The notes under the pieces are model-generated. The model searched no databases. It saw only the letters and a program-made list of their open reading frames with translations, and was not told the origin of the DNA. This document shows positions 36,985 through 59,996 of a DNA stretch of 64,000 bases, piece after piece. Every line of letters begins with the position of its first letter. Position 1 is the first letter of the stretch. A program made the position numbers and the translations under genes. This DNA is from an uncultured Latescibacterota bacterium. Lineage in GTDB: Bacteria > Latescibacterota > UBA2968 > UBA8231. Location of the stretch: positions 5,055,739-5,119,738 of the forward strand of contig OX638377.1 of assembly GCA_951813615.1 (NCBI GenBank). Direction: 5' to 3'.

Positions 36985-37055
36985 CTTGACAGCGCGCTTC
37001 GAAGCAATACCCCCACGCCACGCACGACGGTAGCGAGTTTACCTTTTGTACGCAG
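36695..37055 (+). repeat. duplicated T9SS-CTD coding end plus ~70-bp 3' flank (partner 59646-59996)
   Basis: The CTD codons are roughly 85-90% identical by eye. The flank TAGCTTGACAGCGCGCTTCGAAGCAATACCCCCACGCCACGCACGACGGTAGCGAGTTTACCTTT is identical. Confidence 0.85.
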
Positions 37056-37476: not shown

Positions 37477-40400
37477 ATGTCCAAAGCCAAGCCCTTTTAC
37501 GTGTATGATTTGCTATCCTTTTGTTCCGTGTCGGCCCGTTCGGTGTCGACGCTCTTCCTCGCCTTCGCCGCGCTGCTGACCGCGGCGGCACCCGCCCAAG
37601 CACAGACCGAAGTTCCGAGCAACTGGCCACTCATCCCTTCCGGTTTGAGCGCCGGCGATCAGTTCCGTCTGCTGGTGGTGGTGGAGGAAGCGAGGGACGC
37701 CACCGCAACCGACATCGCGGAATACGACAGCTTCGTTCAGACGGAAATCAGCCAGAACGGCCACGCGTCGATCCGGGACCATTCCAGCATTTTCAAGGTT
37801 CTGGGCTCGACGGCGACCGTCGACGCCAGGGATCATACGAACACGACCTATACCGCGTCGGACACCGGCGTGCCCATCTACTGGCTCAATGGCTCCAAGA
37901 TCGCCGACGACTACGACGATTTCTACGACGACGACTGGGACGGCAACAGCAAGGCAAATCCCCGATACGAGGACGGCAGCGCCGTCAACCCAGCCAACTC
38001 CTTCCGAATCTGGACCGGATCGTTTAATGACGGCACGACCTTTACTAATCAGGGCGGCCAGCCGTTGGGAGGAAACGGTGACGGCACCGGGAAGACGCGA
38101 ACGGCACGACCCACCGGGGGGACGGGCACACTCAACAACGGCCAGCGTGACGTCGCCACAGAGGTCCTCCCTGTCTTCGCCCTTTCCGGCGTCTTCGAAG
38201 TCGGCACCTCTTCCGCCGCCACCGTTTCGAATATTCAGATCACCTCCACCAACGGCGGCGACGGCGAATACGTGGCCGGCGACGAACTGGAATTCACCGT
38301 CACCTTCAGCGAAGCCGTCACCGTCACCGGCTCGCCGCAACTGAATTTCGTCACCAACGACACGGGTGGATCGTCCCCGGAAACGAGGCAGGCCACCTAC
38401 GACTCCGGCGCCAGCACCGGCACGGAACTGGTGTTCAACTACACGATAACGAGCGGGGATTTCGACGAGGACGGCATTGAATTGCCGAGAGACCCGATCG
38501 ATCTCAACGGCGGAACCATCGTCTCGCAGGCATCGAGCGATAACGCGGACCTGGCGTTCGCGGGCCGCTCCGACCAGGCGGCGCACAAGATCCACATTAA
38601 GCCAAAGCTCGTATTATCGAGCGTCAGCGTGGTTTCCGATCCTGCGTCGGCGGCAAACGGCTATGTGACCGGTGAAACCATCCGCATCGCCGTGACCTGG
38701 GACAAGATGGTCCGGGCGGTCACCAATCCGGTGGGCACGAGCAGCGACCCGAACTACCTGCCCGGCGGCGCTTCGCAAGTCACCATCAAGTTCGATTCCG
38801 ACGACGGCCTTGCCGCCTACTCCGAGGCGAGCGACGACTATACGCTGCACTTCGACTATGTCGTCCAGCCCGACGACTGGGACGACGGGGGATTGGTGAC
38901 CAACAGCTACCTCGTCCGCAACGGCGGCGCGATCACGCGCAAGGAAGTGACCGATGGCGTCGCAAGATTCGTGCGGGCTGCCGAGACCGGCCTGGCCCTG
39001 CCGCAACAAATCGCGCACAAGGTCAACGTAAACCGGCCCAAATTCAGCAGCCTCGCCGTCACCTCCTCGCCGGCCACGGGCGACACCTACCAGACCGGAG
39101 AAACCATCAAGGCCGAACTCACCTTCGACCAGACGGTGACCGTGGACGAGACCGGCGGCACGCCTCGGGTCACGATAGAATTGCAATCCGAGGGCGTTGG
39201 CGCCCCGGTCGAGCACTATTTCGATTATGCCAGCGGCAGCGGTACGGCGACGCTGGTGTTCGAATACGTGGTCCAGGCCGGGGACTCCGATGACAACGGC
39301 ATCACGATCCCTGCCAAGGCGCTGAAACTCAACGGCGGCACCATACGCTCTGCCAACGGCACCGACCTGCATTTAGAGGGTGGCGTGCCGGACGGCGGCA
39401 CCGATTACTCCGGCCACAAGGTCGACGGTGGCACCGTGGTCGCAGTGACCGTCTCCTTCGACGCCGCCACGTACACCGCCAGCGAGGAAGGCGCGGACGC
39501 CACCGTGACCGTCAACCTGAGCGCCGACCCCGAACGCGACGTCGTCATTCCCATCGTTGCGGAGGGTGCAAACGGCGGCAGCGCGAATGACTTCACGCTC
39601 ACCTCCCAGACCGTCACCATCGCCAGCGGGGCAACCTCCGGCACCTTCAAGGTCAGGGCGACCGACGACCTGATCGACGACGACGGCGAGACCGTCGCGC
39701 TCAGCTTCGGCGGGCTGCCGACCGGCGTTACCGCCGGCGCCCAGGCCACCGCCAGCGTCTCGATCACGGACGAGGACACGCGCGGCGTGATCTACAGCAG
39801 CCAGTCCGTCCGCGTCCCCGAAGGGCTTATTACGACTGCCGACGTGTTCACGATGAAGTTGGCCACGCAGCCGAGCAACGACGTTCGCGTGACTTTCGCC
39901 GAGGACCCCGATCAACAACTCGACATAACCCCTTCCCTGAATTTCACTCCGAGCAACTGGGGCACGCCGCAGCCTGTAAGTGTAGTGTGGGCCGCCAACG
40001 CCAGCCCGGACGAGAATATCGTGATCACGCTCACGCCCGAGTTCCAAGGAAGCGATTACCGCGACCTGGTGACTCCGGCAACCGTGACGCTCACCATCTT
40101 CGACCGGAGCCGACCAAGGCTGGAGAGCGCGACAGTCGACGGAACCAGCCTGGTACTGACCTACAATCAGGACCTCGACGACACCTCCGTGCCCGCGCAG
40201 GGCGACTTCGAGGTGACGGTTGATGGCGCGGACGTCTCGGTCAGTAGCGTCTCGATCGGCAGTAGCGTCTCGATCGACGGCGCAAAGGTTACCCTGACGC
40301 TGGCGACCGCGGCGGTGATGGGGGATGAGGTCGAGGTTTCCTATACGGTCCCAACCACCAATCCCATCCAGGACGAGGACGAGAACAAGGCCGGGGCGCT

Positions 40401-43400
40401 AACCGACCGGGCCGTGACCAACAACTCGCCCGACACCACCGCACCGAGCTTCAGTTCGGCGACCATCAACGGCGATATGCTGGTCCTCACGTACGATGAA
40501 GACCTGGACACGGGTTCGACGCCTGCGTCGGGTGCCTTCGAGGTGACGGTGGATGGCGCGGACGTCTCGGTCAGTAGCGTCTCGATCGGCAGTAGCGTCT
40601 CGATCGACGGCGCAAAGGTTACCCTGACGCTGGCGACCGCGGCGGTGATGGGGGATGCGGTCGTGGTTTCCTACACGGTCCCGGCCAACAATCCCATCCA
40701 GGACGAGGCGGAAAACATGGCTGCGGCGTTCAGCAACGAGTCGGTGACCAACAACACCGGGGAAGATTCGGACGCCACGCTCAGCGCCCTCACCCTCACA
40801 GAGACGGACGGCACGGCCATATCGCTGAACCAGACGTTCGCCTCCGGCACAACGAGCTACACGGCCATGGTTGCGGTCGGTATCGAGCAGGTCACCATCG
40901 TCGGCACGCCAACAAGCAGCGCCGCAAGTGTGGCCTACACGCCTTCGACCGACGCTGACCCGAACGAAGACGACCACCAGGTCGATCTGTCCTTCGGCGA
41001 GAATACGCTCAAGATCGTGGTTACCGCCGCCGACGCAACCGAGGAAACCTACACGGTCACGGTCGAGCGCGAAAAGCCGGTTGTTGAGATCATGGGCATA
41101 CAGGTTGCCGAAGGCGATGCCTCGGCGAGCCTCGGCGTTTCTCTCACGCCTGCGGTCAACGAGGAGGTGGTCGTGAACTACGAGACCCGGGACTACCCGG
41201 ATACAGGTAGTCCGGATCACGCATATGCCGGCTACGACTACACCGCGGTTTCCGGCAGCCTGACCTTTGCGGCCAACGAAACCGCCAAAACCATCGAGGT
41301 GGAGATTCTGGAAGACGACCTCTACGAAGGGGGAGGGGAGGTAGACGGAGAAACATTTTGGGTGTATCTCGCATTGCCTGCGGGGGCGAAAAACGCGAAC
41401 GTGGGTGTTCCGGGCGCAGTGCTGATTCGCGATAACGACGACCCGCCCACGGTCAGCATCGCCGACGCGAGCGCGGCAGAGGGCGACCCGGTCTCGTTTA
41501 CGGTGAGCCTGTCGGAGGTGAGCGGCCTCGACGTGACCGCCTCCTATACGACCTCGGTCAAAAGCGACGACACGGCGATTTCGGACACCGATTTCACTGC
41601 GGTAACCGGCGGAACCGTGACAGTCGCCGCCGGGAGCACGACCGCCACGGCGGATGTGGTTACCGTCGAGGACACCCACTACGAGGCCGACGAGACTTTC
41701 ACCGTCACCCTGAGCGCGCCACCGGCGGGCACGCACTTGAACGCGACCCTGTCCTCGGATCCGGTCGTGACCGGGACCATCACCAACGACGACGTTCTCG
41801 AACAGGTCACCGGGGTCACCCCGACGGTCGGTAATGCGAAGCTCACCATCAACTGGACCGCGGTGGTCGGCGCGGGCGGCTACAAGGTGCAGTGGAAATC
41901 CGGCACCGAGGACTACAGCGACTCGGCCACCCCCAGCCGTCAGGCGACGATTTCATCCGGAACCACCACGTCGTATGAACTCACCGGCCTGACCAACGAT
42001 GTCGAATACACCATTCGCGTCGCCGCCACGCACAGTGCCGCCGATGATGGTGCATGGTCCAGTGAAGTCTCGGCGACGCCCCGCACGCCGAACTCGCCTG
42101 CGGGGGGCGAGCCGACGATTTCGGGCGAGGCGCTTGTGGGCGAGGAATTGACCGCCGATGCCAGCGGAATCACCGATGCGAACGGCACGACCACGGCGAC
42201 CTACGCCTATCAATGGATTCGGGTGGACAGCGACGGCGTCAGCAATGCAACCGACATCGCCAACGCAACCGGCAGCACGTACACCCTAATCGCCGACGAC
42301 GAGAACAAAAAGATCAAGGTCAAGGTGAATTTCACCGACGACGCGGAGTATGAGGAGGAGCGAACGAGCGCGGCCTATCCCGCCACCAGTACGGTCGGTC
42401 CTGCCCGGAGCGACGACGCCACGCTCAGCGCCCTCACCCTTGCAGAGACGGACGGCACGGCCATATCGCTGAACCAGACGTTCTCCCCCGGCACAACGAG
42501 CTACACGGCCGAAGTCGCGGACGACGTCGCCCAGGTCACGATCGCCGCGACCGCCAACCATTCCGCCGCCAGCGTCGCCTACACGCCTTCGACCGACGCC
42601 GACACGGAAGAAGACGGCCACCAAGTCGATCTGTCCTTCGGCCAGAATACGCTCACGGTCGTGGTGACCGCCCAGGACGAAAGCACGGAAACCTACACGG
42701 TCACGGTCACGCGCAAGAAGAGCGACGACGCCACGCTCAGCGCCCTCACCCTTGCAGAGACGGACGGCACGGCCATATCGCTGAACCAGACGTTCTCCTC
42801 CAACAGAACGAGCTATACGGCCGAAGTCGAGGCCGACGTCCCTCGGATCACGATCGCCGCGACCGCCAACCATTCCGCCGCCAGCGTCGCCTACACGCCT
42901 TCGACCGACGACGACACGGAAGTAGACGGCCACCAGGTCGATCTGTCCTTCGGCCAGAATACGCTCACGGTCGTGGTGACCGCCCAGGACGAAAACACGG
43001 AAACCTACACGGTCAGGGTCATGCGCAAGCCGGTGACGGTTGGATTAGCCACGACAGGACATCAGACCACCGAAGACAACACGTCCCTTGAATTCACGGT
43101 AACGCTCAGCCCTGCGGTCGACGAGGCCGTGACGGTGGACTACCAGACTGTTTCAAATCCACCCGAAGACTATCCAGATGCCCCCGTCGCAGGCGAGGAC
43201 TACGTGGCGGCGTCCGGCAGCCTTACCTTTGCGGCAAACGAAACGTCGAAGATCATCGAGGTACGTATCCTGGAGGACCTGGCGGACGAAGAGGACGAGA
43301 ACTTCTGGCTGCAGCTCCTCGAGCCTGCGGACGCCACGAACGTGGATATTCCTACGAACAAAGTGTGGGCGACGATCCTCATATTCGACGACGACGATCC

Positions 43401-46400
43401 ACCTACCCTCGGCATCGCCGACGCCAGCGGGGACGAAGGGAATCCGGTTTCCTTCACCGTGAGTCTGTCGGCGGCCAGCGGCAAGGAGGTTTCCTTCCGC
43501 TACAAGACTTCAGTCGAAAGCGGCGACGACGCCACCTCGGGCACGGATTTCACTGCGGAATCCGGCCAGGACGTTACCATCGAACGCGGAAACGCGTCCG
43601 TCACGCTGGACATCGCTACGATCGAAGACACCGACTTCGAGGCGGACGAGACCTTCACCGTCACCTTGAGCGAGCATTCCTCGGTCACGGAAATGAACGC
43701 GACCCTGGAATCGGATCCGACCGCGACGGGGACCATCGTCGACGACGAGGAGCTCGCACAGGTCACCGGCGTCACGGCGACCGCTGGCAACGGCAAGCTC
43801 ACCGTCGAGTGGACCGCGGTGGCCAACGCCCAGGGCTACAGGCTGCAATGGAAGTCGGAAAACGACACGGACTACAGCAATTCGGCCACCGACAACCGCG
43901 AGGCGACGATTTCGTCCGGGACGACCGTTTCCTACGACCTCACCGGATTGACCAACGGCGTCGAATACACCGTTCACATCGCCGCCACCCACAACCTCGC
44001 CGGTGACGGCGCATGGTCCACCGAAGCCTCGGGGACGCCCTTCGTCCCGGACACCAGCATGCCGACCCTGACGCTGGCCACCGTCAGCGGCAACATGCTG
44101 GCGCTGACCTACGACAAGGACCTAGACGAGGACTCCGTGCCGGCGGCAAGCGATTTCACCGTGACCGTGGCGGGTTCGTCCGTCGCCGTGAACGACGTCT
44201 CGGTGAGCGGCAAGGCGGTTACCCTGACGCTGGCCACCGCCGCCGAGCACGGTAACACGGTGAGTCTGAGCTACACGATCCCGGCCAACAACCCCATCCA
44301 GGATACTTCCGGAAATGACGCGGCCGCCCTGAGCGCGCAGACCGTGACCAACAACACGCCCGATACCACCGCGCCCGCGTTGAGCAGCGCCGACGTCCAC
44401 GGCGCATCGCTGGTGCTGACCTACGACGAGGACCTGGACGGCAACTCCACGCCGGGGGCAAGCGATTTCACCGTGACCGTGGCGGGTTCGTCCGTCACCG
44501 TGAGCAACGTCTCGGTGAGCGGCAAGACGGTTACCCTGACGTTGGCCGCAGCCGTCGAGCACGGGAACACGGTGAGCCTGAGCTACACGATCCCGGCTAC
44601 CAACCCCATCCAGGACGCTGCCGGGAACGATGCGGCCGCCCTGAGCGGGCAGGCGGTGACCAACGACACGCCCGACACCACTGCGCCGGTGCTTGACACG
44701 GCGACCGTCAACGGCACATCGCTGGTGCTGACGTACGACGAGGACCTGGACGAGGACTCCGTGCCGGCGGCAAGCGATTTCACCGTGACCGTGGCGGGTT
44801 CGTCCGTTGCGGTGAGCGGGGTTGAGATAAGCGGCAAGGCGGTTACCCTGACGCTCGCCGCCCGCGCCCCATACGGCGACACGGTGAGCCTGAGTTACAC
44901 GGTTCCCGCCAGCAACCCGATCCAGGACGTTGACGGAAACAATGTGATGGGCCTGAGCGGGCAGACCGTAACCAATATCACGACGACGACGGCGGTGGCG
45001 CTGAGTGTGGATCCTGCGTCGGTGGACGAGGACGCCGGGGCGACGACGGTGACGGTGACGGGGACGCTGGACGGCGCGCCGCGCACGGTGGACACGGAAG
45101 TAACGGTAGCGGTGGGTGCGTCGGGCGACGCGGCGACCAGTGGGACCGACTACGCTGCGGTCGCCGATCTGACGCTGACGATTGCCACGGGCGCAACCTC
45201 CGGGACGGCCACGTTCTCGCTGACGCCGACGGACGACGACGTGGACGAAGCGGACGAGACCCTGTCGGTGACGGGCGCGACCACGGGCCTGACGGTGACC
45301 GGGACCACGGTGACAATCACCGACGACGAGGCGCGCGGGGTCACGGTCTCGGCAACCACGCTGAGCGTGCCCGAGGGCAGCACGGCCACCTACACGGTGG
45401 TGCTGACCTCGGAGCCGACAGCCGACGTGACGGTGACGCCGTCGGTGGCCTCGGGTTCGACCGATGTGACGTTCAGTCCGGAGTCGCTCACCTTCACCTC
45501 GGACAATTGGGGGACAGCCCAGGAGGTGACGGTGTCGGCGGCGCACGATTCCGATATCGACGACGACGAGGAGACGATAGAACATGCGGTGTCCGGCGGC
45601 GACTACGGGGCCAACAGCGTGACGGCCTCCGACGTTGCGGTGACCGTGACCGACGACGACACCGCTCCGGCGATCATTGCGGGGGGCGTGGAGGTCGCCT
45701 CCTACTCTCTGGCGACCTACAACACCTATGGCGTGGACGAGATCATTGCGGTCAGCGTGACGTTCGACAGGGACGTGAATGTAACCACGGCCGGCGGGAC
45801 GCCCTACGTCAAGGTGGAGTTCAAGAACGAGGACGTCAACGCCGTCGCTACCGAAAAGCATTTTAGCTACGCGAGCGGTTCCGGTACGCCCACGCTGCTG
45901 TTCGAGTACGAGGTGCAGGCCGCCGACCGGGACGACGACGGGATCAGGATCGAGAGTAACGCGCTGGTGCTGAACGGCGGCGTCATCCAGGATACCGACA
46001 GCCGGGACGCCCTGCTCACGCATGCCGCGGCCGGCAGGCAGCAGGCACACCGGGTCGACGGGAGCGAGGTGGTCGGGCCGGCGGAGCTGACGGGCTTCAA
46101 CCTCCGCCTGGCAGGCCTCAATAGCTCTGTGTCGTTCAGCCCGAGTTTCGATCCGGAGATCACGGCCTACACGGCTTCGGTCGACTACGGTGTCACACAC
46201 ATTACAGTGCGGGCAACCGCGGAGGAGGGCGGTGATGTGACCTATGCGGCCGAGGTGGTGGAAGGTTTCCAGTCTGGGAGACTGGTAGTTGCCCTAAGCG
46301 CGGGTTCGAACGAAATCAGGATCACGGCGAAGCGGCGCGGCATCCCCAATCGGGTCTATACCCTTACCGTAACGCGGGGGAGGCCGACCGTCACCATCGC

Positions 46401-52400: not shown

Positions 52401-55400
52401 GACGACGCTGACGGTGCCCGAGGGCGGCACGTCCACCTACACGGTGGTGCTGACCTCGGAGCCGACAGACGACGTGACGGTGACGCCCTCGCTTGCCACC
52501 GGGTCCAGCTCCGACGTGACGTTCAGTCCGACGTCGCTGACCTTCGGGACCACGGACTGGGATACCGCGCAGACGGTGACAGTCGCGGCCGGCCACGACG
52601 ACGATGCGGTCGCGGACGCGGCGACGATCGAGCATGCCGCGACGGGCGGAGACTACGCCTCCGCGCCAACCGGTGAGGTATCCGTCAGCGTGACCGACGA
52701 CGATCAGGCGTCGACGGCGGGGGCGCTGGCGGTGGAGGGGACGTCGGTGGACGAGGATGCGGGGGCGACCACGATCACGGTGACGGGCACACTCAACGGT
52801 GGAACCATCGCGACGGCAACCGACGTGACGGTGTCGGTGGGTGCCTCCGGTGACGCGGCGATGGAGGGGACGGACTACACCACGGTTGCTGACTTCACGC
52901 TGACCATCGATGCGGGCGAGACCTCCGGGACGGCCACGTTTACGCTGACGCCGACCGACGACGACATCGACGAAGCCGACGAGACCCTGTCGGTGACGGG
53001 CACGGTGACGGGTTTGACGGTGACCGGAACGACGCTGACCATCGCAGACGACGACGAGCGCGGCGTGACGGTGACGCCAACGGCGCTGGATGTAACAGAA
53101 GGCTCAAACGCAACGTATACGGTGGTGCTGACCTCGGAGCCGACGGACGATGTGACAGTGACCCCGTCGCGAGCCTCGGGCTCCACCGATGTGACGTTCA
53201 GCCCGGCGTCGCTCACCTTCACGTCGGAAGATTGGGACACCGCGAAGACGGTGACCGTGGCGGCGGCGGAGGATGCGGACGCGGAGGACGACGAGGCAAC
53301 CATCTCGCACGCGGTGTCCGGCGGCGACTATGGGGCCAACAGCGTGACGGCCTCCAGCGTTGCGGTGACGGTTGACGACGACGAGACGGCTTCGACGGCG
53401 GTGGCGCTGAGCGTGAGCCCGGCGTCGGTTGCCGAGGACGCGGGGGCCACCACCGTGACGGTGACGGGCACGCTGAATGGCGCACCTCGGACATCTGCAA
53501 CGGCAGTGACGGTGGCAGTAGGCGCATCTTCTGACGCGGCGACCGAAGGCACCGACTATGCGACGGTGACCGATCTGACCCTGACCATCGATGTCGGCGA
53601 GACTTCGGGCACGGCCACGTTTACGCTGACGCCGACCGACGACGACATCGACGAAGCCGACGAAACCCTGTCAGTTACCGGCACGACCACCGGCCTCAGC
53701 GTGACGAGCACCACGGCGACGATCACCGACGACGACACCCGCGGCGTGACGGTCTCGGCAACCACGCTGAGCGTGCCGGAGGGCAGCACGGCCACCTACA
53801 CGGTGGTGCTGACCTCAGAGCCGACGGCGACCGTGACGGTGACCCCGTCGCGGGCATCGGGTTCTACCGATGTGACCTTCAGCCCATCGTCGTTGAGCTT
53901 CACGACGGACGATTGGAAAACCGCACAGACGGTGACCGTGGCGGCAGCCGACGACGACGATGCCGACAACGACACCGCGACGTTGGCGCACGCGGTCTCC
54001 GGCGGCGACTACGGGACCAACAGCGTGACAGCCTCCGACGTTGAGGTGACGGTCTCTGACGACGAGACGGCTTCGACGACGGTCGCGCTGAGTGTGAATC
54101 CGGCGTCGGTGGCTGAAGACGCGGGGGCCACCACTGTGACGGTGACGGGCACGCTGGACGGGACAGCTAGGACCACGGACACGTCGGTGACGGTGGAGGT
54201 GGGCGCCTCTTCCGATGCGGCGATGGAGGGCACCGACTACACCACGGTTGCTGACTTCACGCTGACCATCGATGCGGGCGAGACCACCGGCACGGCCACG
54301 TTTACGCTAACGCCGACCGACGACGACCTCGACGAAGCCGACGAAATCCTGTCGGTCACCGGCACACACATGACAATCGACATCGATACCGATCCCGCCA
54401 ACCTTGAGGAACTGACGGTGACCGGGACCTCGGCCACCATCACCGACGACGACACCCGCGGCGTGACGGTGACGCCGACGGCGCTGGATGTAACAGAAGG
54501 CTCAAACGCAACGTATACGGTGGTACTGACCTCGGAGCCGACGGCGACCGTGACGGTGACCCCGTCGCGGGCCTCGGGCTCCAGCGATGTGACGTTCAGT
54601 CCGGCGTCGTTAAGCTTCACGGCGGACGATTGGAACACGGCGAAGACGGTGACAGTGGAGGCGGCCGACGACGACGATGCCGACAACGACACCGCGACGC
54701 TATCGCACGCGGTGTCCGGTGGCGACTATGGGACCAACAGCGTGACAGCCTCCAGCGTTGAGGTGAAGGTCGACGACGACGAGACGGCTTCGACGGCGGT
54801 GGCGCTGAGTGTGAGCCCGGCGTCAGTGGCTGAAGACGCGGGGGCCACCACCGTGACGGTCACGGGCACGCTGAATGGCGCACCTCGGACATCTGCAACG
54901 GCGGTGACGGTGGCGGTGGGCGCACCCGGTGATGCGGCGACCGAAGGCACCGACTACACCACGGTGACCGATCTGACCCTGACCATCGATGCCGGCGAGA
55001 CCTCCAGCACGGCCACGTTCTCGCTGACGCCGACCGACGACGACATCGACGAAGCCGACGAGACCCTGTCGGTGAAGGGCACGACCACGGTGACGAGTCT
55101 CAGCGTGACGGCAACCACGGCGACCATCGCAGACGACGACGAGCGCGGCGTGACGGTGACGCCGACGGCGCTGGATGTAACAGAAGGCTCAAACGCAACG
55201 TATACGGTGGTACTGACCTCAGAGCCGACGGCGACCGTGACGGTGACCCCGTCGCGAGCCTCGGGCTCCAGCGATGTGACCTTCACCCCGGCGTCGGTCA
55301 CCTTCACGTCGGAAGATTGGGACGCCGCGAAGACAGTGACGGTGGCGGCAGCCGACGACGACGATGCCGAGGATGACACGGCGACGCTATCGCACGCGGT

Positions 55401-58400
55401 CTCCGGCGGCGACTACGGCTCGGAGACAGCGGACGATGTGGCGGTGACGGTCACGGACGATGAGACGGCATCAACGAAGGTGACGCTGTCGGCGAGTGCG
55501 ACATCGGTAGATGAGGACGCGGGCAGCACGAGCGTGACGGTGACGGCTGAGTTGGACGAAGCAGCGCGGACCTCGGCGACAGAGGTGACGGTGGTGGTAG
55601 GTGCGTCGGGGGACGGTGCGACGGAGGGGACGGATTACGCCACGGTCAATGACTTTACACTGACCATCGCGGCGGGTCAGACCTCGGGTACGGCGAGCTT
55701 CACGCTGACGCCAACGGATGACGATGTGGACGAGGAGGACGAGACACTGACGGTGGACGGCACCGTGCAAGATCTGACCGTGACGGCGACGACGCTGACC
55801 ATTGAAGACGACGACACGCGCGGGATTGCGGTTTCGCCAACCAATCTGACGGTGGCCGAGGGTAGAAGCAAGTCCTACACGGTGGTACTGTCGTCACAGC
55901 CGACAGGCGCAGTGACGGTCACGCCGAGTGTCAGCGGTGATTCGGACGTGACAGTGGCTCCCTCAAAGCTGACGTTCACAGAGGACAACTGGGATCAGCC
56001 GCAGACGGTGACGGTCTCGGCGGCACAGGACGCCGATGCGGAGGACGCTTCTGCAACCATAGTGCACGCGGTGTCCGGCGGCGATTACGGCTCTGAGACA
56101 GCAGCCGATGTATCGGTGACGGTCACGGACGATGAGACGGCATCAACGAAGGTGACCCTATCGGTGAGTGCGACATCGGTAGATGAGGACGCGGGCAGCA
56201 CGACCGTGACGGTTACGGCCGAACTGGACGAGTCGGCACGGACCTCGGCGACGGAGGTGACGGTATCGGTAGGTGCTGCGGGAGACGGTGCGACAGAGGG
56301 CACGGATTACGCCACAGTGAGCGATGTCACCCTGACCATCGCGGCGGGTCAGACGAGCGGGACAGCCAGCTTCACGCTGACGCCAACGGATGACGACGTG
56401 GATGAACAGGCTGAGACGCTGACGGTGGACGGCACGGTACAGAGTCTGACGGTGACCGGGACGAGCCTGACCATCGAAGACGACGACACGCGCGGGATCG
56501 AGGTCTCGTCAACGGACGTGACAGTAGCCGAGGGCGCAGGCAGTTCGACCTACACGGTGGTACTCGAAAGCCAGCCGACAGCCGACGTCACGGTGACGCC
56601 GAGTGTGAGCGGCGATTCGGACGTGACGGTGGCTCCTTCGACGCTGACGTTCACAGAGGACAACTGGGATCAGCCGCAGACGGTGACCGTGTCGGCGGCG
56701 CAGGACGCCGATGCGGACGACTCGTCTGCAACCATAGCGCACGTGGTGTCCGGCGGCGACTACGGTTCGGAGACAGCGGACGATGTAGCGGTGACGGTCA
56801 CCGACGACGATATAGCCGTGTCGGCGGCGACGCCTTCGACCTCTTCGACCGCGACGTCGGTAGGCTCGATCTACCTGTGCGGTGCCACGGTCGGGACGAC
56901 GACGGGCGTGGCCTATGATTCGTCGGTGGACGTGTGCTGGGACACCGGGAGTTCGATCCCCACGGGCAGCGACGTGGTCATCGAGGAACGCAGCAAGGAC
57001 TATTGGAACTCCCCTAATTCGTTTTCCTCATGGCAAGAAATCGCCCGTGGCAACACCTTCACGCCGTGCTCCGAAGGCGACGATAGCTGCGTGCAATACG
57101 CACACACCGGCTTGAGGCGAGCAGGAACCTTCACGCAGGAGCTACGCATCCGCCAAGGTAGCAACGTACTGAAGACCTCGCCGCAACTGAAGGCCGCCGC
57201 CCCCAACAGCAACGGGAAAGGATTGCAGGCGCAGCTATCGACGGCTATGGACGAGGACACCTGGGCCTTTATCGAAAAGCCAACAGGGCCGTTCGTGGTA
57301 GGGCTGGTATTCAGCGAGCCGGACCTGGGTGCGACCTACGCAGAGGAGGCCGTGCAGGGCCTCGGGACGGACGACTTTCGGATGACCAACGGCACCGTGA
57401 CCGCCATCGAAGGCTGGAACAGCGGAGGCTACAAGGTCCGCGTTACGCCGACCACGCTGGGCGAGCCGGTGACGATCAAGCTGAAGGCAAAAACGGTCCA
57501 GGGCGTGGGTGAGGGCATCACGGCGGCTGGCACGAACACGTTCACGCGCAGCAACACCGGATCGAACAAGGTTGTGCAGGAGACTGCTGCCGCCGCCGGG
57601 AAGGTGACCGTCACGCCGGGACTCTCGGTGGCCGACGCCGAGGTAAACGAAGGCGCAGACGCGACGCTCTCGTTCCAAGTAACGCTCAGCCGAGCGGCCT
57701 CGGGTTCGGTGACCGCGGACTGGGCGACGGCGGACGGCACGGCGACGGCGGGGCAGGATTACACCGCCGCCCGTGGCACGCTGACCTTCGCCACGGGTGA
57801 GACATCACAGACGGTGACCGTGACCGTGCTCGACGACACACACGACGAGGGCACGGAGACCCTCACCCTCACGCTCTCGAATCCGTCGGGCGCGCGGATT
57901 ACCGACGGCACGGCGACGGGTACGATTATAAACAGCGACCCGATGCCCCAAGCATGGCTGGCGCGGTTCGGGCGCACAGTGGCGGACCAAGTGCTGACGT
58001 CAGTGAACAATCGGGCGCGGACGGCGCGGACGGCGCGGGTGCCGGGCTTCGAAGCCCGAATCGCCGGACAGCGGCTTGAGGGCCTATTGGCGTCAGACGA
58101 AGAAGAGGAGCCGGAGGCGGCACGCCACCAGAAGGTGGACGGACCCTCCCGCAAACGCGACGAGCGGGGAACGTGGTTGCGGGAGGTGACGGCACGTGAC
58201 TTCGTCACCGGCTCCTCCTTCGCGCTGACGGGTGAAACGCAAGAGAGTGGCTTGGGTTCGCTGTGGGGACAGGGAACCCTCGCACGCTTCGACGGGCGCA
58301 AGGGCGACCTCTCGCTCGACGGCGAGATTCTGAGCAGCTTGTTGGGTGCGGACTGGACGAGAGGACGTGGGATCGCGGGAGTCTTACTCTCGCACGCACA

Positions 58401-59352
58401 GGGCAAGGGCGACGGGGATGGCGCGATGGAATCGACGCTGACCGGCCTCTATCCCTACGGGCACTATGCCGTAAACGATCACCTGTCGGCGTGGAGCGTT
58501 TTCGGCTACAGTCGCGGCGAGCTGGCGCTGGTGCCGACAGGCGGGACCGCGCTGGAGGCCGGCATCGGCTTGGCCATGGCCGCAGCAGGTGCCCGGGGCA
58601 CGGTGCTCGACGGGGACCGCAACGGGCTGACGCTGGCGCTAATTTCGGATGGGATGGCGATGCGGACGACCTCGGAGGCGGTTGAGGGCTTGGTGTCGTC
58701 GGAGGCGGACGTGACGCGGCTCCGACTCGGGCTTGAAGGATCGCGACCGCTACGGCTCGAAGGCGGGACAGTGCTGACGCCCGCCATCGAGATCGGCGCG
58801 CGCCACGACGGCGGCGATGCAGAGACCGGCTACGGTGCTGACCTCGGGGCGGCGCTGGCGTGGTCGTACCCCAAACGCGGTCTGAAGGCCAAGGTCCAAG
58901 GTCGCGGGCTGGTTGCCCACCAAGACAGCGACTTCCAGGAGCGGGGCTTCGCCGGCTCGCTCGCTTGGGACCCGACGCCAGCCTCCGAGCTCGGGCCATC
59001 GTTTACGCTCCAAGAGACCGTAGGAGCGGCGGCGACGGGCGGGATGCGGGCTCTGATGCAACGAGATTCCCCAGCGGGTCTGACGACGAACGAGGTTCGC
59101 GGCGGCGGGCGGGTCGAAGCTGAGATCGGCTATGGCCTGCCAGTGTGGCGCGGGCGATTCGCCGGCATTCCCTCCTTCCGGTTCGGCTCTGCCGACGGCG
59201 GCCGGACTGCTCGGCTCGGTTACCGGCTGAGTCCAATCAGTGCCGAGGGCTGGCAACTCAAACTGGACATCGAGACCATGCGCCGAAAAAGCGCCAACGC
59301 CAACCGGCCGACCGACCACTTTGTCGGAATGCGCGCTGGGATGCGCTGGTGA
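37477..59352 (+). CDS. giant secreted multidomain adhesin-like protein (7291 aa): Calx-beta, cadherin-like, SwmB-like and FN3 modules with a C-terminal autotransporter-type beta-barrel
   Basis: The ORF is uninterrupted over 21.9 kb. The ATG at 37477 gives MSKAKPF...LTAAAPAQA|QTE (the ORF track starts at 37447). It contains dozens of beta-sandwich modules. The last ~470 aa are nearly identical to the end of the 2911-aa protein and finish ...GMRAGMRW. Confidence 0.9.
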   Translation: MSKAKPFYVYDLLSFCSVSARSVSTLFLAFAALLTAAAPAQAQTEVPSNWPLIPSGLSAGDQFRLLVVVEEARDATATDIAEYDSFVQTEISQNGHASIRDHSSIFKVLGSTATVDARDHTNTTYTASDTGVPIYWLNGSKIADDYDDFYDDDWDGNSKANPRYEDGSAVNPANSFRIWTGSFNDGTTFTNQGGQPLGGNGDGTGKTRTARPTGGTGTLNNGQRDVATEVLPVFALSGVFEVGTSSAATVSNIQITSTNGGDGEYVAGDELEFTVTFSEAVTVTGSPQLNFVTNDTGGSSPETRQATYDSGASTGTELVFNYTITSGDFDEDGIELPRDPIDLNGGTIVSQASSDNADLAFAGRSDQAAHKIHIKPKLVLSSVSVVSDPASAANGYVTGETIRIAVTWDKMVRAVTNPVGTSSDPNYLPGGASQVTIKFDSDDGLAAYSEASDDYTLHFDYVVQPDDWDDGGLVTNSYLVRNGGAITRKEVTDGVARFVRAAETGLALPQQIAHKVNVNRPKFSSLAVTSSPATGDTYQTGETIKAELTFDQTVTVDETGGTPRVTIELQSEGVGAPVEHYFDYASGSGTATLVFEYVVQAGDSDDNGITIPAKALKLNGGTIRSANGTDLHLEGGVPDGGTDYSGHKVDGGTVVAVTVSFDAATYTASEEGADATVTVNLSADPERDVVIPIVAEGANGGSANDFTLTSQTVTIASGATSGTFKVRATDDLIDDDGETVALSFGGLPTGVTAGAQATASVSITDEDTRGVIYSSQSVRVPEGLITTADVFTMKLATQPSNDVRVTFAEDPDQQLDITPSLNFTPSNWGTPQPVSVVWAANASPDENIVITLTPEFQGSDYRDLVTPATVTLTIFDRSRPRLESATVDGTSLVLTYNQDLDDTSVPAQGDFEVTVDGADVSVSSVSIGSSVSIDGAKVTLTLATAAVMGDEVEVSYTVPTTNPIQDEDENKAGALTDRAVTNNSPDTTAPSFSSATINGDMLVLTYDEDLDTGSTPASGAFEVTVDGADVSVSSVSIGSSVSIDGAKVTLTLATAAVMGDAVVVSYTVPANNPIQDEAENMAAAFSNESVTNNTGEDSDATLSALTLTETDGTAISLNQTFASGTTSYTAMVAVGIEQVTIVGTPTSSAASVAYTPSTDADPNEDDHQVDLSFGENTLKIVVTAADATEETYTVTVEREKPVVEIMGIQVAEGDASASLGVSLTPAVNEEVVVNYETRDYPDTGSPDHAYAGYDYTAVSGSLTFAANETAKTIEVEILEDDLYEGGGEVDGETFWVYLALPAGAKNANVGVPGAVLIRDNDDPPTVSIADASAAEGDPVSFTVSLSEVSGLDVTASYTTSVKSDDTAISDTDFTAVTGGTVTVAAGSTTATADVVTVEDTHYEADETFTVTLSAPPAGTHLNATLSSDPVVTGTITNDDVLEQVTGVTPTVGNAKLTINWTAVVGAGGYKVQWKSGTEDYSDSATPSRQATISSGTTTSYELTGLTNDVEYTIRVAATHSAADDGAWSSEVSATPRTPNSPAGGEPTISGEALVGEELTADASGITDANGTTTATYAYQWIRVDSDGVSNATDIANATGSTYTLIADDENKKIKVKVNFTDDAEYEEERTSAAYPATSTVGPARSDDATLSALTLAETDGTAISLNQTFSPGTTSYTAEVADDVAQVTIAATANHSAASVAYTPSTDADTEEDGHQVDLSFGQNTLTVVVTAQDESTETYTVTVTRKKSDDATLSALTLAETDGTAISLNQTFSSNRTSYTAEVEADVPRITIAATANHSAASVAYTPSTDDDTEVDGHQVDLSFGQNTLTVVVTAQDENTETYTVRVMRKPVTVGLATTGHQTTEDNTSLEFTVTLSPAVDEAVTVDYQTVSNPPEDYPDAPVAGEDYVAASGSLTFAANETSKIIEVRILEDLADEEDENFWLQLLEPADATNVDIPTNKVWATILIFDDDDPPTLGIADASGDEGNPVSFTVSLSAASGKEVSFRYKTSVESGDDATSGTDFTAESGQDVTIERGNASVTLDIATIEDTDFEADETFTVTLSEHSSVTEMNATLESDPTATGTIVDDEELAQVTGVTATAGNGKLTVEWTAVANAQGYRLQWKSENDTDYSNSATDNREATISSGTTVSYDLTGLTNGVEYTVHIAATHNLAGDGAWSTEASGTPFVPDTSMPTLTLATVSGNMLALTYDKDLDEDSVPAASDFTVTVAGSSVAVNDVSVSGKAVTLTLATAAEHGNTVSLSYTIPANNPIQDTSGNDAAALSAQTVTNNTPDTTAPALSSADVHGASLVLTYDEDLDGNSTPGASDFTVTVAGSSVTVSNVSVSGKTVTLTLAAAVEHGNTVSLSYTIPATNPIQDAAGNDAAALSGQAVTNDTPDTTAPVLDTATVNGTSLVLTYDEDLDEDSVPAASDFTVTVAGSSVAVSGVEISGKAVTLTLAARAPYGDTVSLSYTVPASNPIQDVDGNNVMGLSGQTVTNITTTTAVALSVDPASVDEDAGATTVTVTGTLDGAPRTVDTEVTVAVGASGDAATSGTDYAAVADLTLTIATGATSGTATFSLTPTDDDVDEADETLSVTGATTGLTVTGTTVTITDDEARGVTVSATTLSVPEGSTATYTVVLTSEPTADVTVTPSVASGSTDVTFSPESLTFTSDNWGTAQEVTVSAAHDSDIDDDEETIEHAVSGGDYGANSVTASDVAVTVTDDDTAPAIIAGGVEVASYSLATYNTYGVDEIIAVSVTFDRDVNVTTAGGTPYVKVEFKNEDVNAVATEKHFSYASGSGTPTLLFEYEVQAADRDDDGIRIESNALVLNGGVIQDTDSRDALLTHAAAGRQQAHRVDGSEVVGPAELTGFNLRLAGLNSSVSFSPSFDPEITAYTASVDYGVTHITVRATAEEGGDVTYAAEVVEGFQSGRLVVALSAGSNEIRITAKRRGIPNRVYTLTVTRGRPTVTIAASESSTTYRLEDVSFTVTHDQVAFSDEMDVDVAFEQDQTFLPASDLSRTVTIPADESSVTLTLGIGAFTGGATANGTFTAAIAQSDGYAIGTAGSASVDFVVADPALTVRFDNVAYEFFEDDGDVTLDIVAETAPDVVLSDAFSVTVQTRGRDDSAVIITDYIFTGGGVTFEAADFAASDGALAATKSIELQLVDDSVTEGEKSFWIELSANNFPPAATLLQGDGTACSGTCRSKVTIVDDESPGQVTGVELDPGAGALTVDWTAVVSATGYKVQWKSGTETFADAATDNREVTVTPGSTTSYTITGLTDGTDYTVRVIATRTDSPDGPASAEVTGTPGLPTLTIADATATEGNAVEFTVTLSPAADMAVSVEYATSDGTATSDATHEDGADYTAAPDDEALVILAGETSATISIETGDDTVDEDDETFTVTLSSPTSNAVLGTVVAATGTIEDNDTDPAEVTGVAFENAPANGEYALGDEIEVSVTFDTAVEVTGEPRVRLEMPGTEAASYADYDADESTDTVLAFFYTVTADDDDADGISVVANSLELNNGTIFNKETTVVAALAHDAVQGGNIRTRSVESIAITSDPEVRSPAPEGIYGPGEVVEFTVTFAAAVTVDNNDGNPKLVFAASDGARQEAAYVSGTGTTELVFEWTVLADVPGEEGAIDIPANTTGGGTLLTDGGLVLNGGTIEDAQDRGVNIRHGEYATESEVDTTPPVLASGAEGATVDGTTLVLTFERASGVADHLDGSSVPAPEKFIIIAAGSAQQASAVEVDGATVTLTLGSEVGHAQDVKMQYQGSDENPIRDLWGNDTPPFRDRAVRNDSPEPELSITDVTVAEDAGEATFTVTLNVESGEEVTVEYATSDDTAKADSDYEEATGTLTIAAGETSGTFDVTVNNDVVSESDEAFTVTLSGAVGATIATATATGTITDDEEVPTLTISDATATEGSAVEFTVTLSPAADQAVTVAYATTDGTATSDAAHEDGADYTAAASDAELTIDAGETSATISIATGNDAVDEDDETFTVTLSDPSSNAVLGTDQAATGTIVDNDTDPAEVTGVAFENAPSSGEYVLGDVIEVSVTFDTDVEVTGAPRVRLSMSGTAASTSYAHYDGNESTDTVLAFRHTVTADDDDANAISVAANGLELNGGTINNKGTSVAAVLDHDAVQGGDIRTRWVESIAITSEPEVGELVPEGIYGPGEEVSFTVTFSAAVTVDDSGGDPVLIVAASDGTRQEAAYASGSGTTALVFEWTVPSDVSGEEGAIEIPANTTGGGTLLTNGGLVLNGATIEDASSRAVNIRHGAYSTGSEVDTTPPVVASGAGGATVDGTKLMLAFERASGVADHLDESSVPAATDFVVTVAGSAQTVSGVAVDDATVTLTLQSPVGHAQTVTVNYSPGTDPIRDMWGNNAVAFSDRAVRNDSPEPELSIGDVTVAEDAGEATFTVTLDVVSGEEVTVDYATSDDTAETDSDYDEASGTLTIAAGATSNTFDVTVNDDSVGEGDETFTVTLASAVNATIATATATATITDDETPTLTIADASATEGNAMVFTVTLSPAADEAVTVAYATSDGTATADATHEDGADYTAPASDAQLTIAAGQTSGTISIATGNDAVFEGDETFTVTLSDPSSNAVLGTDKAATGTIENNDAASTDAALKSLVLKVGGSDVDLTPVFTATTYSYEADAANIAATVEVVAESNHAKATIAISGDDDTTSPGEAALPLAFGENTLTVTVTAEDGNATQTYTVKVTRGLPVLSWKHGLLVLIENVGEVTLTATLTPASIDEVTVDYATQAAGATPGEDFIETSGTLTFAAGETEKTVKVTILDDNLYEPGGASDVNVILTDPTGTAVLGSGLGNKSILRLTDNDDPPTVTMENVTVDEDAGTMEFTLSLSHGVETDDLEYEVASSGVGGTATSGSDYESFISGSSATLAVPSRATSATFSVSILDDDIDEDDETITLQWRQLSLTQYVAEASQSIDVTGTITDDDTRGVTVSATTLTVPEGGTSTYTVVLTSEPTDDVTVTPSLATGSSSDVTFSPTSLTFGTTDWDTAQTVTVAAGHDDDAVADAATIEHAATGGDYASAPTGEVSVSVTDDDQASTAGALAVEGTSVDEDAGATTITVTGTLNGGTIATATDVTVSVGASGDAAMEGTDYTTVADFTLTIDAGETSGTATFTLTPTDDDIDEADETLSVTGTVTGLTVTGTTLTIADDDERGVTVTPTALDVTEGSNATYTVVLTSEPTDDVTVTPSRASGSTDVTFSPASLTFTSEDWDTAKTVTVAAAEDADAEDDEATISHAVSGGDYGANSVTASSVAVTVDDDETASTAVALSVSPASVAEDAGATTVTVTGTLNGAPRTSATAVTVAVGASSDAATEGTDYATVTDLTLTIDVGETSGTATFTLTPTDDDIDEADETLSVTGTTTGLSVTSTTATITDDDTRGVTVSATTLSVPEGSTATYTVVLTSEPTATVTVTPSRASGSTDVTFSPSSLSFTTDDWKTAQTVTVAAADDDDADNDTATLAHAVSGGDYGTNSVTASDVEVTVSDDETASTTVALSVNPASVAEDAGATTVTVTGTLDGTARTTDTSVTVEVGASSDAAMEGTDYTTVADFTLTIDAGETTGTATFTLTPTDDDLDEADEILSVTGTHMTIDIDTDPANLEELTVTGTSATITDDDTRGVTVTPTALDVTEGSNATYTVVLTSEPTATVTVTPSRASGSSDVTFSPASLSFTADDWNTAKTVTVEAADDDDADNDTATLSHAVSGGDYGTNSVTASSVEVKVDDDETASTAVALSVSPASVAEDAGATTVTVTGTLNGAPRTSATAVTVAVGAPGDAATEGTDYTTVTDLTLTIDAGETSSTATFSLTPTDDDIDEADETLSVKGTTTVTSLSVTATTATIADDDERGVTVTPTALDVTEGSNATYTVVLTSEPTATVTVTPSRASGSSDVTFTPASVTFTSEDWDAAKTVTVAAADDDDAEDDTATLSHAVSGGDYGSETADDVAVTVTDDETASTKVTLSASATSVDEDAGSTSVTVTAELDEAARTSATEVTVVVGASGDGATEGTDYATVNDFTLTIAAGQTSGTASFTLTPTDDDVDEEDETLTVDGTVQDLTVTATTLTIEDDDTRGIAVSPTNLTVAEGRSKSYTVVLSSQPTGAVTVTPSVSGDSDVTVAPSKLTFTEDNWDQPQTVTVSAAQDADAEDASATIVHAVSGGDYGSETAADVSVTVTDDETASTKVTLSVSATSVDEDAGSTTVTVTAELDESARTSATEVTVSVGAAGDGATEGTDYATVSDVTLTIAAGQTSGTASFTLTPTDDDVDEQAETLTVDGTVQSLTVTGTSLTIEDDDTRGIEVSSTDVTVAEGAGSSTYTVVLESQPTADVTVTPSVSGDSDVTVAPSTLTFTEDNWDQPQTVTVSAAQDADADDSSATIAHVVSGGDYGSETADDVAVTVTDDDIAVSAATPSTSSTATSVGSIYLCGATVGTTTGVAYDSSVDVCWDTGSSIPTGSDVVIEERSKDYWNSPNSFSSWQEIARGNTFTPCSEGDDSCVQYAHTGLRRAGTFTQELRIRQGSNVLKTSPQLKAAAPNSNGKGLQAQLSTAMDEDTWAFIEKPTGPFVVGLVFSEPDLGATYAEEAVQGLGTDDFRMTNGTVTAIEGWNSGGYKVRVTPTTLGEPVTIKLKAKTVQGVGEGITAAGTNTFTRSNTGSNKVVQETAAAAGKVTVTPGLSVADAEVNEGADATLSFQVTLSRAASGSVTADWATADGTATAGQDYTAARGTLTFATGETSQTVTVTVLDDTHDEGTETLTLTLSNPSGARITDGTATGTIINSDPMPQAWLARFGRTVADQVLTSVNNRARTARTARVPGFEARIAGQRLEGLLASDEEEEPEAARHQKVDGPSRKRDERGTWLREVTARDFVTGSSFALTGETQESGLGSLWGQGTLARFDGRKGDLSLDGEILSSLLGADWTRGRGIAGVLLSHAQGKGDGDGAMESTLTGLYPYGHYAVNDHLSAWSVFGYSRGELALVPTGGTALEAGIGLAMAAAGARGTVLDGDRNGLTLALISDGMAMRTTSEAVEGLVSSEADVTRLRLGLEGSRPLRLEGGTVLTPAIEIGARHDGGDAETGYGADLGAALAWSYPKRGLKAKVQGRGLVAHQDSDFQERGFAGSLAWDPTPASELGPSFTLQETVGAAATGGMRALMQRDSPAGLTTNEVRGGGRVEAEIGYGLPVWRGRFAGIPSFRFGSADGGRTARLGYRLSPISAEGWQLKLDIETMRRKSANANRPTDHFVGMRAGMRW
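40201..40700 (+). repeat. two 330-bp SwmB-like modules with a ~122-bp near-identical core, each containing an 18-bp internal tandem duplication
   Basis: 40207-40328 and 40537-40658 differ at about 1 nt. AGTAGCGTCTCGATCGGC / AGTAGCGTCTCGATCGAC lie at 40243-40278 and again one period later. Confidence 0.85.
42409..43032 (+). repeat. two tandem 312-bp cadherin-like modules, near-identical
   Basis: AGCGACGACGCCACGCTCAGCGCCCTCACCCTTGCAGAGACGGACGGCACGGCCATATCGCTGAACCAGACGTTCTCC occurs at 42409 and 42721. Confidence 0.85.
47422..51360 (+). repeat. tandem ~1.79-kb (598/597-aa) supermodule, 2 full copies plus a partial third
   Basis: Copy starts CCGACGCTGAC(G/A)ATT are at 47422, 49216 and 51007, giving periods of 1794 and 1791 nt. 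Each copy begins PTLTI(A/S)DA(T/S)ATEG..V(E/V)FTVTLSPAAD. Confidence 0.85.
52372..56810 (+). repeat. tandem array of ~670-715-bp two-module units (Calx-beta plus an LTFT..NW..QTVTV module), about 6.5 copies
   Basis: Unit starts GACGACGAC(ACC/GAG)CG.GG are at about 52372, 53047, 53725, 54440, 55135, 55808 and 56478. Long stretches are identical between non-adjacent units. Confidence 0.8.
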
Positions 59353-59478: not shown

Positions 59479-59934
59479 GTGAATGCGGGCGTGGCCTTGC
59501 TCCCGGATACGGTGACCGACGACGGCGGGACGATCAATGTCCGCATCAGTAATGCCCGGCTGACGACGGATAACTGGGAACGGACGCTGACAATCACCAC
59601 GGCGGAGGCGACGGGGATGATCCACAACAGCGGTGGCAAGCCGGTCGCTCTGCCGGACCGACCCCAGTTGGCGCAGAACGCACCCAATCCATTCAACAGT
59701 CAGACGACGCTAGCCTATTTCTTGCCCGCGGCAGGGCCAGTGCGCTTAGAAGTGTTCTCGTTGAGCGGACAACGGGTGGCGGTTCTGCGCCACGGGCTGA
59801 AACAGGCCGGCTATCACCAACTGCGCTGGCAGGGCCGCGACGACGACGGTCGTCGGGTCGCGAGCGGCATATACCTATACAGGCTGATGACGACCGAAGA
59901 GGTCTTGACGGGCAAGCTCATCCTGCTGCGGTAG
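59479..59934 (+). pseudogene. 3' relic of a T9SS-CTD protein gene, paralogous to the end of 34918..36984
   Basis: It encodes half a Calx-beta module plus a complete CTD (LAQNAPNPFNSQTTLAYFL...KLILLR). Upstream in the same frame, decayed Calx-beta sequence (EYRPAGAAVTDWARTC*SDYYPQDF) contains a TAG at 59422-59424. There is no signal peptide or start context. Confidence 0.65.
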
Positions 59935-59996
59935 CTTGACAGCGCGCTTCGAAGCAATACCCCCACGCCACGCACGACGGTAGCGAGTTTACCTTT
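59646..59996 (+). repeat. duplicated T9SS-CTD coding end plus 3' flank (partner 36695-37055)
   Basis: See the partner entry. Confidence 0.85.

Follow-up and report, generated by a model that had tools for sequence, protein, structure and literature searches.

A giant Calx-beta-rich protein of an uncultured Latescibacterota bacterium ends in a predicted outer-membrane barrel of a large, unannotated family related to autotransporters

A 64,000-nucleotide stretch of the genome of an uncultured Latescibacterota bacterium (contig OX638377.1 of assembly GCA_951813615.1, positions 5,055,739 to 5,119,738; hereafter, the window) contains a 21.9-kb gene for a protein of 7,291 residues, in which a signal peptide, a head domain and a long array of beta-sandwich modules are followed by a 470-residue tail. 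The explanation that we favour, and hold to be fairly probable, is that this giant adhesin exports and anchors itself by a type-V-like route, through a C-terminal barrel that would be derived from an autotransporter barrel and expanded to ~18 strands, the strand count and the export route both being predictions. Structure models and sequence features support the identification of the tail as a C-terminal outer-membrane beta-barrel, with a helix before it and an aromatic residue at its end, and a distant relationship of this barrel to autotransporter barrels is also supported. What appears to be new here is the tail family itself, large and unannotated, with an enlarged barrel predicted by modelling, and the presence of thousands of similar proteins in sponge-symbiont genomes.

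The initial annotation, made from the sequence alone, had described one uninterrupted open reading frame (ORF) of 21.9 kb encoding, in order, a signal peptide, a ~200-residue N-terminal domain without a name, dozens of SWM-like, cadherin-like, FN3 and Calx-beta modules, and a tail with a linker helix, amphipathic strands and a terminal ...GMRAGMRW. Translation, profile searches and comparison with homologues uphold this outline throughout (Table 1). The frame opens with an in-frame ATG, with an AAAGG box a few bases 5' of it, and has no internal stop codon; a GTG at 37447 is an alternative start that would give 7,301 residues (37447-59352, + strand, in the ORF list). No other ORF of >700 residues overlaps 37477-59352 in any frame, and a chance origin of the 21.9-kb open frame is excluded because domain matches occur along its full length. 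As read from its sequence, the protein carries an N-terminal Sec-type signal peptide (MSKAK...LLTAAAPAQA, followed by QTEVPS), and homologues of the head domain likewise have a hydrophobic leader that stops just before the conserved QTEVPS.

The tail (57940-59349) holds AWLARFGRTVADQVL, which is predicted to be helical, then a run of amphipathic strands, and ends ...GMRAGMRW. With the tail as query, at least 961 protein clusters were retrieved, those ranking highest being 43-52% identical across the whole 470 residues, and the best matches in protein and genome collections are ~48-54% identical. An exact look-up of a protein from the window was also negative, so the source genome is absent from these collections. 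In a full HMMER scan with the family profile against 1.84 billion representatives, in clusters at 50% identity, 10,331 clusters were matched at E<=1e-3 and 5,098 at E<=1e-30. The best 150 family proteins have 727-5,546 residues, and with its 7,291 residues the protein in the window is the longest family member seen. A published description of the tail was not found in the literature. The end of the tail is the C-terminus of the protein in 264 of 270 members, and the last residue is W or F in 257 of the 270; the final strand of outer-membrane barrels usually ends in such an aromatic residue. Within the helix, R9, F10, G11, R12, V14 and R25 are near-invariant in an alignment of 121 sequences. 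The segment that leads from the helix to the barrel has a conserved small hairpin (tail residues 36-46), a variable, charged region that is predicted to be disordered (50-80) and a short helix (85-90), and columns 47-72 of the family alignment are gap-rich.

Homology to autotransporter barrels is supported transitively, through relatives with sequences that match the autotransporter profile, PF03797; membership by family models fails for the tail itself. Three of the 43 aligned relatives match PF03797, with E 7.9e-12 for P0107, and P0109, from outside the 43-sequence alignment, matches with E 6.9e-13, both above the gathering score. The matching relatives are 43-47% identical to the tail in the window and align with it end to end. 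Their match is limited to positions 1-207 of the 255 in the profile, positions 208-255 being never matched. In the 121-sequence alignment (A3), profile position 1 corresponds to residue 108 of the tail, at an LWG.G motif similar to the first strand, '(V/I)WLR..GG', of the aligned Escherichia coli autotransporters, and positions 206/207 correspond to residues 295/296. Collinearity with PF03797 therefore covers the first nine strands only, and the last ~180 residues of nine family members gave no PF03797 signal, only weak generic OMP_b-brl matches. There are no POTRA, ShlB or Omp85 Pfam matches in the tail or the passenger. At the turn where the similarity to the autotransporter profile stops, tail residues 288-297 (58801-58830) form an almost invariant R-H-D-G-G-D-A-E-T-G motif, for which metal binding and contact with the linker helix are possibilities.

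Two AlphaFold models of the tail were obtained, from 43 and from 121 sequences. Model 1, with a predicted local distance difference test (pLDDT) score of 66, contains the helix and 12 confident strands but is ill-defined in its C-terminal third, and its best fold matches are the beta-domains of BrkA, NalP, EspP and Hbp (for BrkA, TM-score to target 0.59-0.64). Model 2 (pLDDT 82, predicted TM-score 0.75) has low confidence over the charged region at residues 50-80, a short strand at residues 93-99 and then 18 long strands between residues 105 and 469, a run that is broken only by a loop at 363-389 (pLDDT 39-53), the rest of the C-terminal part being mostly at 73-90. The strand at 105-121 is taken as the counterpart of autotransporter strand 1 because the PF03797 profile begins at residue 108, and the resulting count of 18 wall strands is even, as it must be in a bacterial barrel whose two termini are periplasmic. 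The nine wall strands of the second barrel part occupy the place of just two strands in a classical autotransporter. Fold matches of model 2 include 18-stranded OprD/Occ and MOMP porins and, with a TM-score to query of 0.42-0.46, 22-stranded TonB-dependent receptors; BrkA is still matched, at 21% identity with a TM-score to target of 0.55, and over the structural alignments its beta-domain is 20-21% identical to the tail. All fold matches of both models are outer-membrane barrels, and BamA, FhaC and CdiB are poor fold matches to the tail.

Ahead of the tail, Pfam identifies SWM_repeat in 7 stretches of the passenger (E 1.8e-88 and 1.1e-27), Calx-beta in 20 (E 1.7e-70 and 2.4e-119), Cadherin-like in 5 and fn3 in 3, with fn3_6 matched too, and the modules detected are present in both halves of the protein. 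Residues 265-6813 are tiled by matches to hidden Markov models (HMMs) of the units of the protein itself, with counts of ~36 Calx-like, 17 'EFTVTFSEAVTVTG', 7 SWM and 3 fn3 units, the 'EFTVTFSEAVTVTG' unit (~17 copies) being without a family name. Calx-beta is the commonest module and is concentrated at residues 4743-6441 as double units of ~225 residues, beneath which the DNA has repeat families with a spacing of 672-681 nucleotides and 61-95% identity, mostly 61-87%; the adjacent repeat copies 42408/42720 are 95% identical in DNA. The last unit before the tail is also a Calx-beta, and a Calx-like unit ends within 25 residues of the tail in 190 of the 204 family members with enough upstream sequence, with the junction consensus ...ATGTI.N.D.MP.AWLARFGRTVA.QV... 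Calx-beta followed by the tail is thus the rule in a family of thousands, and the giant protein is no one-off.

Architecture, homology and predicted fold are the established parts of this account, and from them we infer each of the following steps of export. The signal peptide would bring the chain through Sec, and the C-terminal barrel would be inserted by the beta-barrel assembly machinery (BAM). The helix (AWLARFGRT...) and the next segment are predicted to lie in or under the lumen of the barrel, joining it to the passenger, which would be threaded outward with its C-terminal end first. Outside the cell, the junction Calx-beta would be the first module to fold, a putative counterpart of an autochaperone, and sequential folding of the ~60 modules would then pull the remainder out. 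The product presumably remains attached as a fibre, with a rough estimated length of a few hundred nanometres and the head at its tip. That the organism has an outer membrane follows from the TonB-dependent receptor encoded in the window. Genomes were surveyed in GTDB r232, with one genome per species, and details of loci were taken from the best 80 of at least 439 stretches. No gene is conserved downstream of these 80 family loci, the largest cluster having 10 loci and resembling spurious high-GC ORFs, and because of this the tail module looks self-sufficient and autotransporter-like.

Were the barrel an anchor or a pore only, the passenger would have to be exported by another machine, TamAB-dependent, unknown or type IX, an explanation that we regard as unlikely. 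It draws on the position of the barrel outside any recognised translocator family, on the lack of precedent for a ~18-stranded barrel among type V translocators (PMC6555100), and on the neighbourhood of the gene, in which three ORFs have type IX sorting domains (TIGR04183 above cut-off; 34918-36984, 59479-59934 and 60492-62627, all on the + strand), so that the organism has another surface-display route. The giant protein is, however, without a type IX C-terminal domain, with no TIGR04183 match in its last 520 residues, and its C-terminus is the barrel. If a barrel is inserted from the periplasm, a chain covalently joined to it has to traverse the membrane either at this barrel or at its seam with BamA, and no partner gene is conserved beside the 80 loci, which belong to many phyla, many of them not known for type IX secretion.

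Export through the barrel itself, as favoured here, would involve more strands than in any classical autotransporter, and membership of the extra C-terminal strands in the membrane barrel is supported by evidence independent of the fold matches to the predicted structure, the terminal W or F included. Family-averaged hydropathy in strands 10-19 alternates with a period of two, with a face difference of 1.3-4.1, and this alternation is at least as strong in the C-terminal strands as in the autotransporter-like part. A mean-field coupling analysis with gap imputation (316 sequences, effective number ~190) gave a mean score of 2.9 for adjacent strands vs 1.8 +/- 0.6 for others, and the highest scores, 3.7-4.3, are those of four C-terminal hairpins. 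It is accordingly improbable, in our assessment, that the tail is a classical 12-stranded type Va barrel with its last ~140-175 residues forming an extra domain that AlphaFold misplaced. Model 1, from 43 sequences, would suit such a structure, with low confidence beyond its 12 strands and with 12-stranded autotransporter barrels, BrkA foremost, as its best fold matches, and so would the collinearity of PF03797 from strand 1 in the relatives. With 121 sequences, however, the C-terminal strands became confident and the matches moved to larger barrels; these strands show the strongest lipid-facing alternation of all, covary as hairpins and bear the terminal W/F, and the last 48 positions of PF03797 find no match.

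Several results weigh against a self-exporting, autotransporter-derived barrel. The scan of the tail for PF03797 that was proposed in the initial annotation is negative even at E<=1, and the count of 12 strands that it expected gave ~18 predicted wall strands in model 2, compared with the 12 that define type Va. The last 470-520 residues match only the end of the preceding Calx-beta in Pfam and nothing in NCBIfam or among PDB sequences at E<=1-10, and the 43-sequence family profile matched none of the PDB sequences. TIGR01414 is unmatched by the tail itself and reaches 12.8-13.1 bits in relatives vs a cut-off of 16, and because of this the single named family member found is called 'hypothetical protein'. 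Profile-profile comparison of the family alignment with Ag43, YfaL, YpjA and YcgV of E. coli K-12 was non-significant (probability 1.6%), probably because the reference alignment was too thin. The TM-scores of the fold matches of model 2 are never above ~0.56, so that no overall structural match is good, and, in contrast to classical autotransporters, ~75 residues are predicted to intervene between the helix and wall strand 1. The coupling analysis, at 316 sequences, detects adjacent hairpins only on average, and its signal between the first and last strands is too weak either way. The association with sponges, described below, rests on the records of relatives.

A 12-stranded barrel is the defining feature of the classical, type Va autotransporters, whose passengers are mostly beta-helical (PMC6555100), and by this standard the combination of a barrel tail with an Ig-like array is atypical, as the initial annotation had stated. 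Its assignment of the tail to type Va holds for the C-terminal barrel, the helix, the aromatic end and a distant homology, and fails for the family models and the 12 strands. Shared with BrkA, NalP, EspP and Ag43 are the order of Sec signal peptide, passenger and C-terminal outer-membrane barrel, the helix ahead of the barrel, the aromatic last residue and the absence of a partner gene; in relatives, collinearity with PF03797 extends over the first nine wall strands, and BrkA is recognisable at the low identity given above. The differences, in addition to the size of the predicted barrel, its escape from PF03797 and TIGR01414 and the segment between helix and first wall strand, are a beta-sandwich passenger and a Calx-beta junction in place of the type Va beta-helix and autochaperone. 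The giant protein would thus work like type Va and is distantly homologous to it, but fails the family models and the 12-strand count and lacks the usual passenger fold.

A long Ig-like array displayed from a single barrel is shared with the type Ve proteins (intimin, invasin and members with long Ig repeats), for which sequential folding of the Ig-like modules is probably what drives export (PMC6555100), as proposed above for the giant protein with threading in the opposite direction. In type Ve, however, a 12-stranded barrel at the N-terminus precedes the passenger, the reverse of the order in the giant protein, with its larger barrel; membership was rejected, as the barrel is C-terminal and the N-terminus consists of a signal peptide and a soluble head. 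Types Vb and Vd, with POTRA domains and a 16-stranded Omp85 barrel, were rejected on the absence of POTRA, ShlB and Omp85 matches and the poor fit to the BamA, FhaC and CdiB folds. In size, in tandem beta-sandwich repeats of Ca-binding type and in a distal ligand-binding domain, the protein resembles the giant type I adhesins LapA, SiiE and MpIBP. These adhesins have no Sec signal peptide; they carry a secretion signal at the C-terminus, or RTX repeats, as well as a retention module at the N-terminus, and depend on TolC together with an ATP-binding cassette (ABC) transporter and a membrane fusion protein. No type I secretion components were found among the scanned neighbouring genes and, given also the signal peptide and the C-terminal barrel, membership of this group was rejected, as was that of the type IX cargo proteins, for which the sorting domain is missing.

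Relatives of the tail are encoded in at least 439 stretches in the genome survey, and the best 80 are all from metagenome-assembled genomes (MAGs). These MAGs belong to at least eight phyla, with labels that include Alpha- and Gammaproteobacteria, Binatia, Gemmatimonadota, Latescibacterota, Entotheonella, Nitrospirales, Vicinamibacteria, Thermodesulfobacteriota and Spirochaetia. Many of the loci are on megabase contigs or complete chromosomes, and several genomes have multiple copies, for example at least 6 loci on OY763326.1. The formate-tetrahydrofolate ligase encoded in the window shares 86% identity with proteins from MAGs labelled Gemmatimonadetes and Latescibacteria. A number of record names point to sponges: 'Entotheonella', 'Porisulfidus' and the bins APA_, COS4_, IRC3_, RHO3_ and SB06xx, the prefixes of which we take to denote sponge species. 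MAGs named by universally unique identifiers (OZ/CBD accessions) are of the kind released with the Aquatic Symbiosis Genomics sponge genome notes. Among the 80 loci, the nearest tail is in another class or phylum for 27 of 67, at up to 87% identity, the 87% pair being from a Binatia chromosome and an alphaproteobacterium; such cross-phylum nearest neighbours would fit lateral transfer. Two loci, L003 and L005, have 100% identical tails and the same match coordinates in MAGs labelled Binatia and Gemmatimonadetes and are probably one contig binned twice, and consequently the phylum labels of short contigs should be trusted with caution. Downstream flanks of L021, L047, L066 and L078 have, by eye only, integrase-, excisionase- or conjugation-like ORFs, a hint that mobile elements might carry adhesin genes between phyla.

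Sponge symbionts of different phyla are enriched in proteins with Calx-beta, fn3, cadherin and leucine-rich repeat (LRR) domains, for which lateral transfer is also reported (PMC9531527, PMC11706023, PMC8163846), and the family described here resembles these eukaryote-like proteins (ELPs) in its domains, its occurrence in sponge-associated MAGs of many phyla and its signs of lateral transfer. Studies of sponge-symbiont ELPs count domains, and in the literature found a C-terminal barrel or export route is undescribed; known secretion systems are encoded by few sponge MAGs (PMC8163846). Given the 'eukaryote-like' module set and the presence of the family in sponge-associated MAGs, the giant protein likely attaches its bacterium to the matrix or cells of the sponge or to neighbouring bacterial cells. 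Long extracellular Calx-beta arrays are also found in the sponge aggregation factors (PMC5400394, PMC11670116), which, unlike the giant protein, are host-encoded proteoglycan components without a membrane barrel. Attachment to the host matrix is plausible because Calx-beta arrays are the main component of the aggregation factor; a relation to these factors by mimicry or by binding is speculation.

The window encodes a second family member, a paralogue of 2,924 residues with a different passenger and a signal-peptide-like N-terminus. Over their final ~3.9 kb (27650-31551 and 55450-59352) the two giant genes have 78-99% DNA identity, with 95-99% between the tails, and the similarity falls to background exactly at the stop codon, which suggests gene conversion or a recent partial duplication limited to the 3' part. 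That the 21.9-kb frame is an assembly artefact, a repeat expansion or a chimera of paralogues formed via these tails, with the real gene shorter or split, is very improbable: many internal repeats, some with 95% identity between adjacent copies, a near-identical 1.4-kb tail 27.8 kb away and many head-domain homologues that look truncated or frameshifted could be cited for it, but 7,291 codons are open with recognisable domains throughout, most repeat copies are 61-87% identical only, family members of 4,000-5,546 residues occur in other assemblies, and a swap of paralogue tails leaves the architecture unchanged.

The head domain is conserved, with the motifs FRLL..., GH..I and VPIYWLNG..ADDY.DFYDG.W in a comparison of homologues, and has no match in Pfam or among PDB sequences, profile search included. 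A likeness by eye to endostatin/DUF1554-type domains was dropped when Pfam scans of 33 members and the PDB profile search proved negative. Placed at the distal tip of the fibre, the head is likely the ligand-binding end. Members of the head family in the databases (P0281-P0315, 35 matches) are mostly short, with 127-347 residues, and many finish in arginine-rich, low-complexity sequence; judged by these sequences, the short members look like giant genes broken elsewhere by frameshifts or contig ends.

Of the type IX sorting-domain genes near the giant gene, the 151-residue ORF (59479-59934) has little beyond the sorting domain, and 59641-59940 is 84% identical in DNA to 36691-36990, the end of the 688-residue gene; from this, the ORF looks like a remnant. 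In the 711-residue ORF (60492-62627), the sorting domain is at residues 86-166 and so is not C-terminal, and this ORF may be two genes or a frameshift. Between these two, a 107-residue ORF on the - strand (60086-60409) matches only the C-terminal part of the short-chain dehydrogenases, of which a full-length gene is present 2.3 kb away (62709-63476, - strand); the short ORF is probably a fragment from a rearrangement that also duplicated the type IX tail. Between the giant genes, 31652-34036 (- strand) encodes a hybrid histidine kinase/response regulator with GAF, PAS and DNA-binding output domains, and upstream, 16906-20076 (- strand) encodes a sigma-54 activator with propeller (Reg_prop/Y_Y_Y) sensor domains; both are possible regulators. 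Just 5' of the first giant gene are two overlapping ORFs of 241 and 376 residues (20658-21383 and 21380-22510, + strand), neither of which has a Pfam or NCBIfam match.

Table 1. Features of the giant gene and its paralogue, in window coordinates
Feature	Start	End	Strand	Description and basis
Paralogue	22777	31551	+	2,924 residues; LRR, fn3, SWM, Calx-beta, tail at 30139-31548; translation and Pfam
Whole gene	37477	59352	+	7,291 residues from ATG, stop codon 59350-59352; translation and Pfam
Sec-type signal peptide	37477	37602	+	Residues 1-42, ending AAAPAQA before QTE; read from sequence
N-terminal head domain	37603	38196	+	Conserved; 35 homologues at E<=1e-3
Beta-sandwich array	38269	57915	+	~60 modules of 80-110 residues; Pfam, self-built HMMs, DNA repeats
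Membrane-proximal Calx-beta unit	57625	57915	+	Residues 6717-6813, directly upstream of tail; Pfam and HMM map
Linker helix	57943	58023	+	Conserved; tail residues 2-28, AWLARFGRTVADQVL...; AlphaFold pLDDT 86-94
Segment from helix to barrel	58024	58215	+	Tail residues 29-92; AlphaFold model 2
Predicted barrel, part 1	58216	58827	+	Short strand (tail residues 93-99) and wall strands 1-9 (105-292); pLDDT 87-97
Predicted barrel, part 2	58828	59349	+	Nine wall strands (tail residues 297-469), loop with short helix (363-389), ...GMRAGMRW

The definition of an autotransporter would become wider with a family of thousands in which an enlarged barrel of autotransporter derivation carries Ig-like arrays as long as ~7,300 residues, and the natural comparison is with the inverse autotransporters, which have the same passenger fold and the opposite direction of threading. 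Tentatively, and as a possibility that we would not yet put at even odds, the tail could represent an undescribed type V subclass, with ~18 strands, a Calx-beta junction and export of long beta-sandwich passengers, that has spread laterally and provides the missing display route of the ELPs. The route by which the ELPs of sponge symbionts reach the host is an open question (PMC8163846). The tail family may explain how the 'eukaryote-like' adhesins of these symbionts are displayed and, as a self-contained module for export and anchoring that is at present annotated 'hypothetical', it renders the question of ELP display testable.

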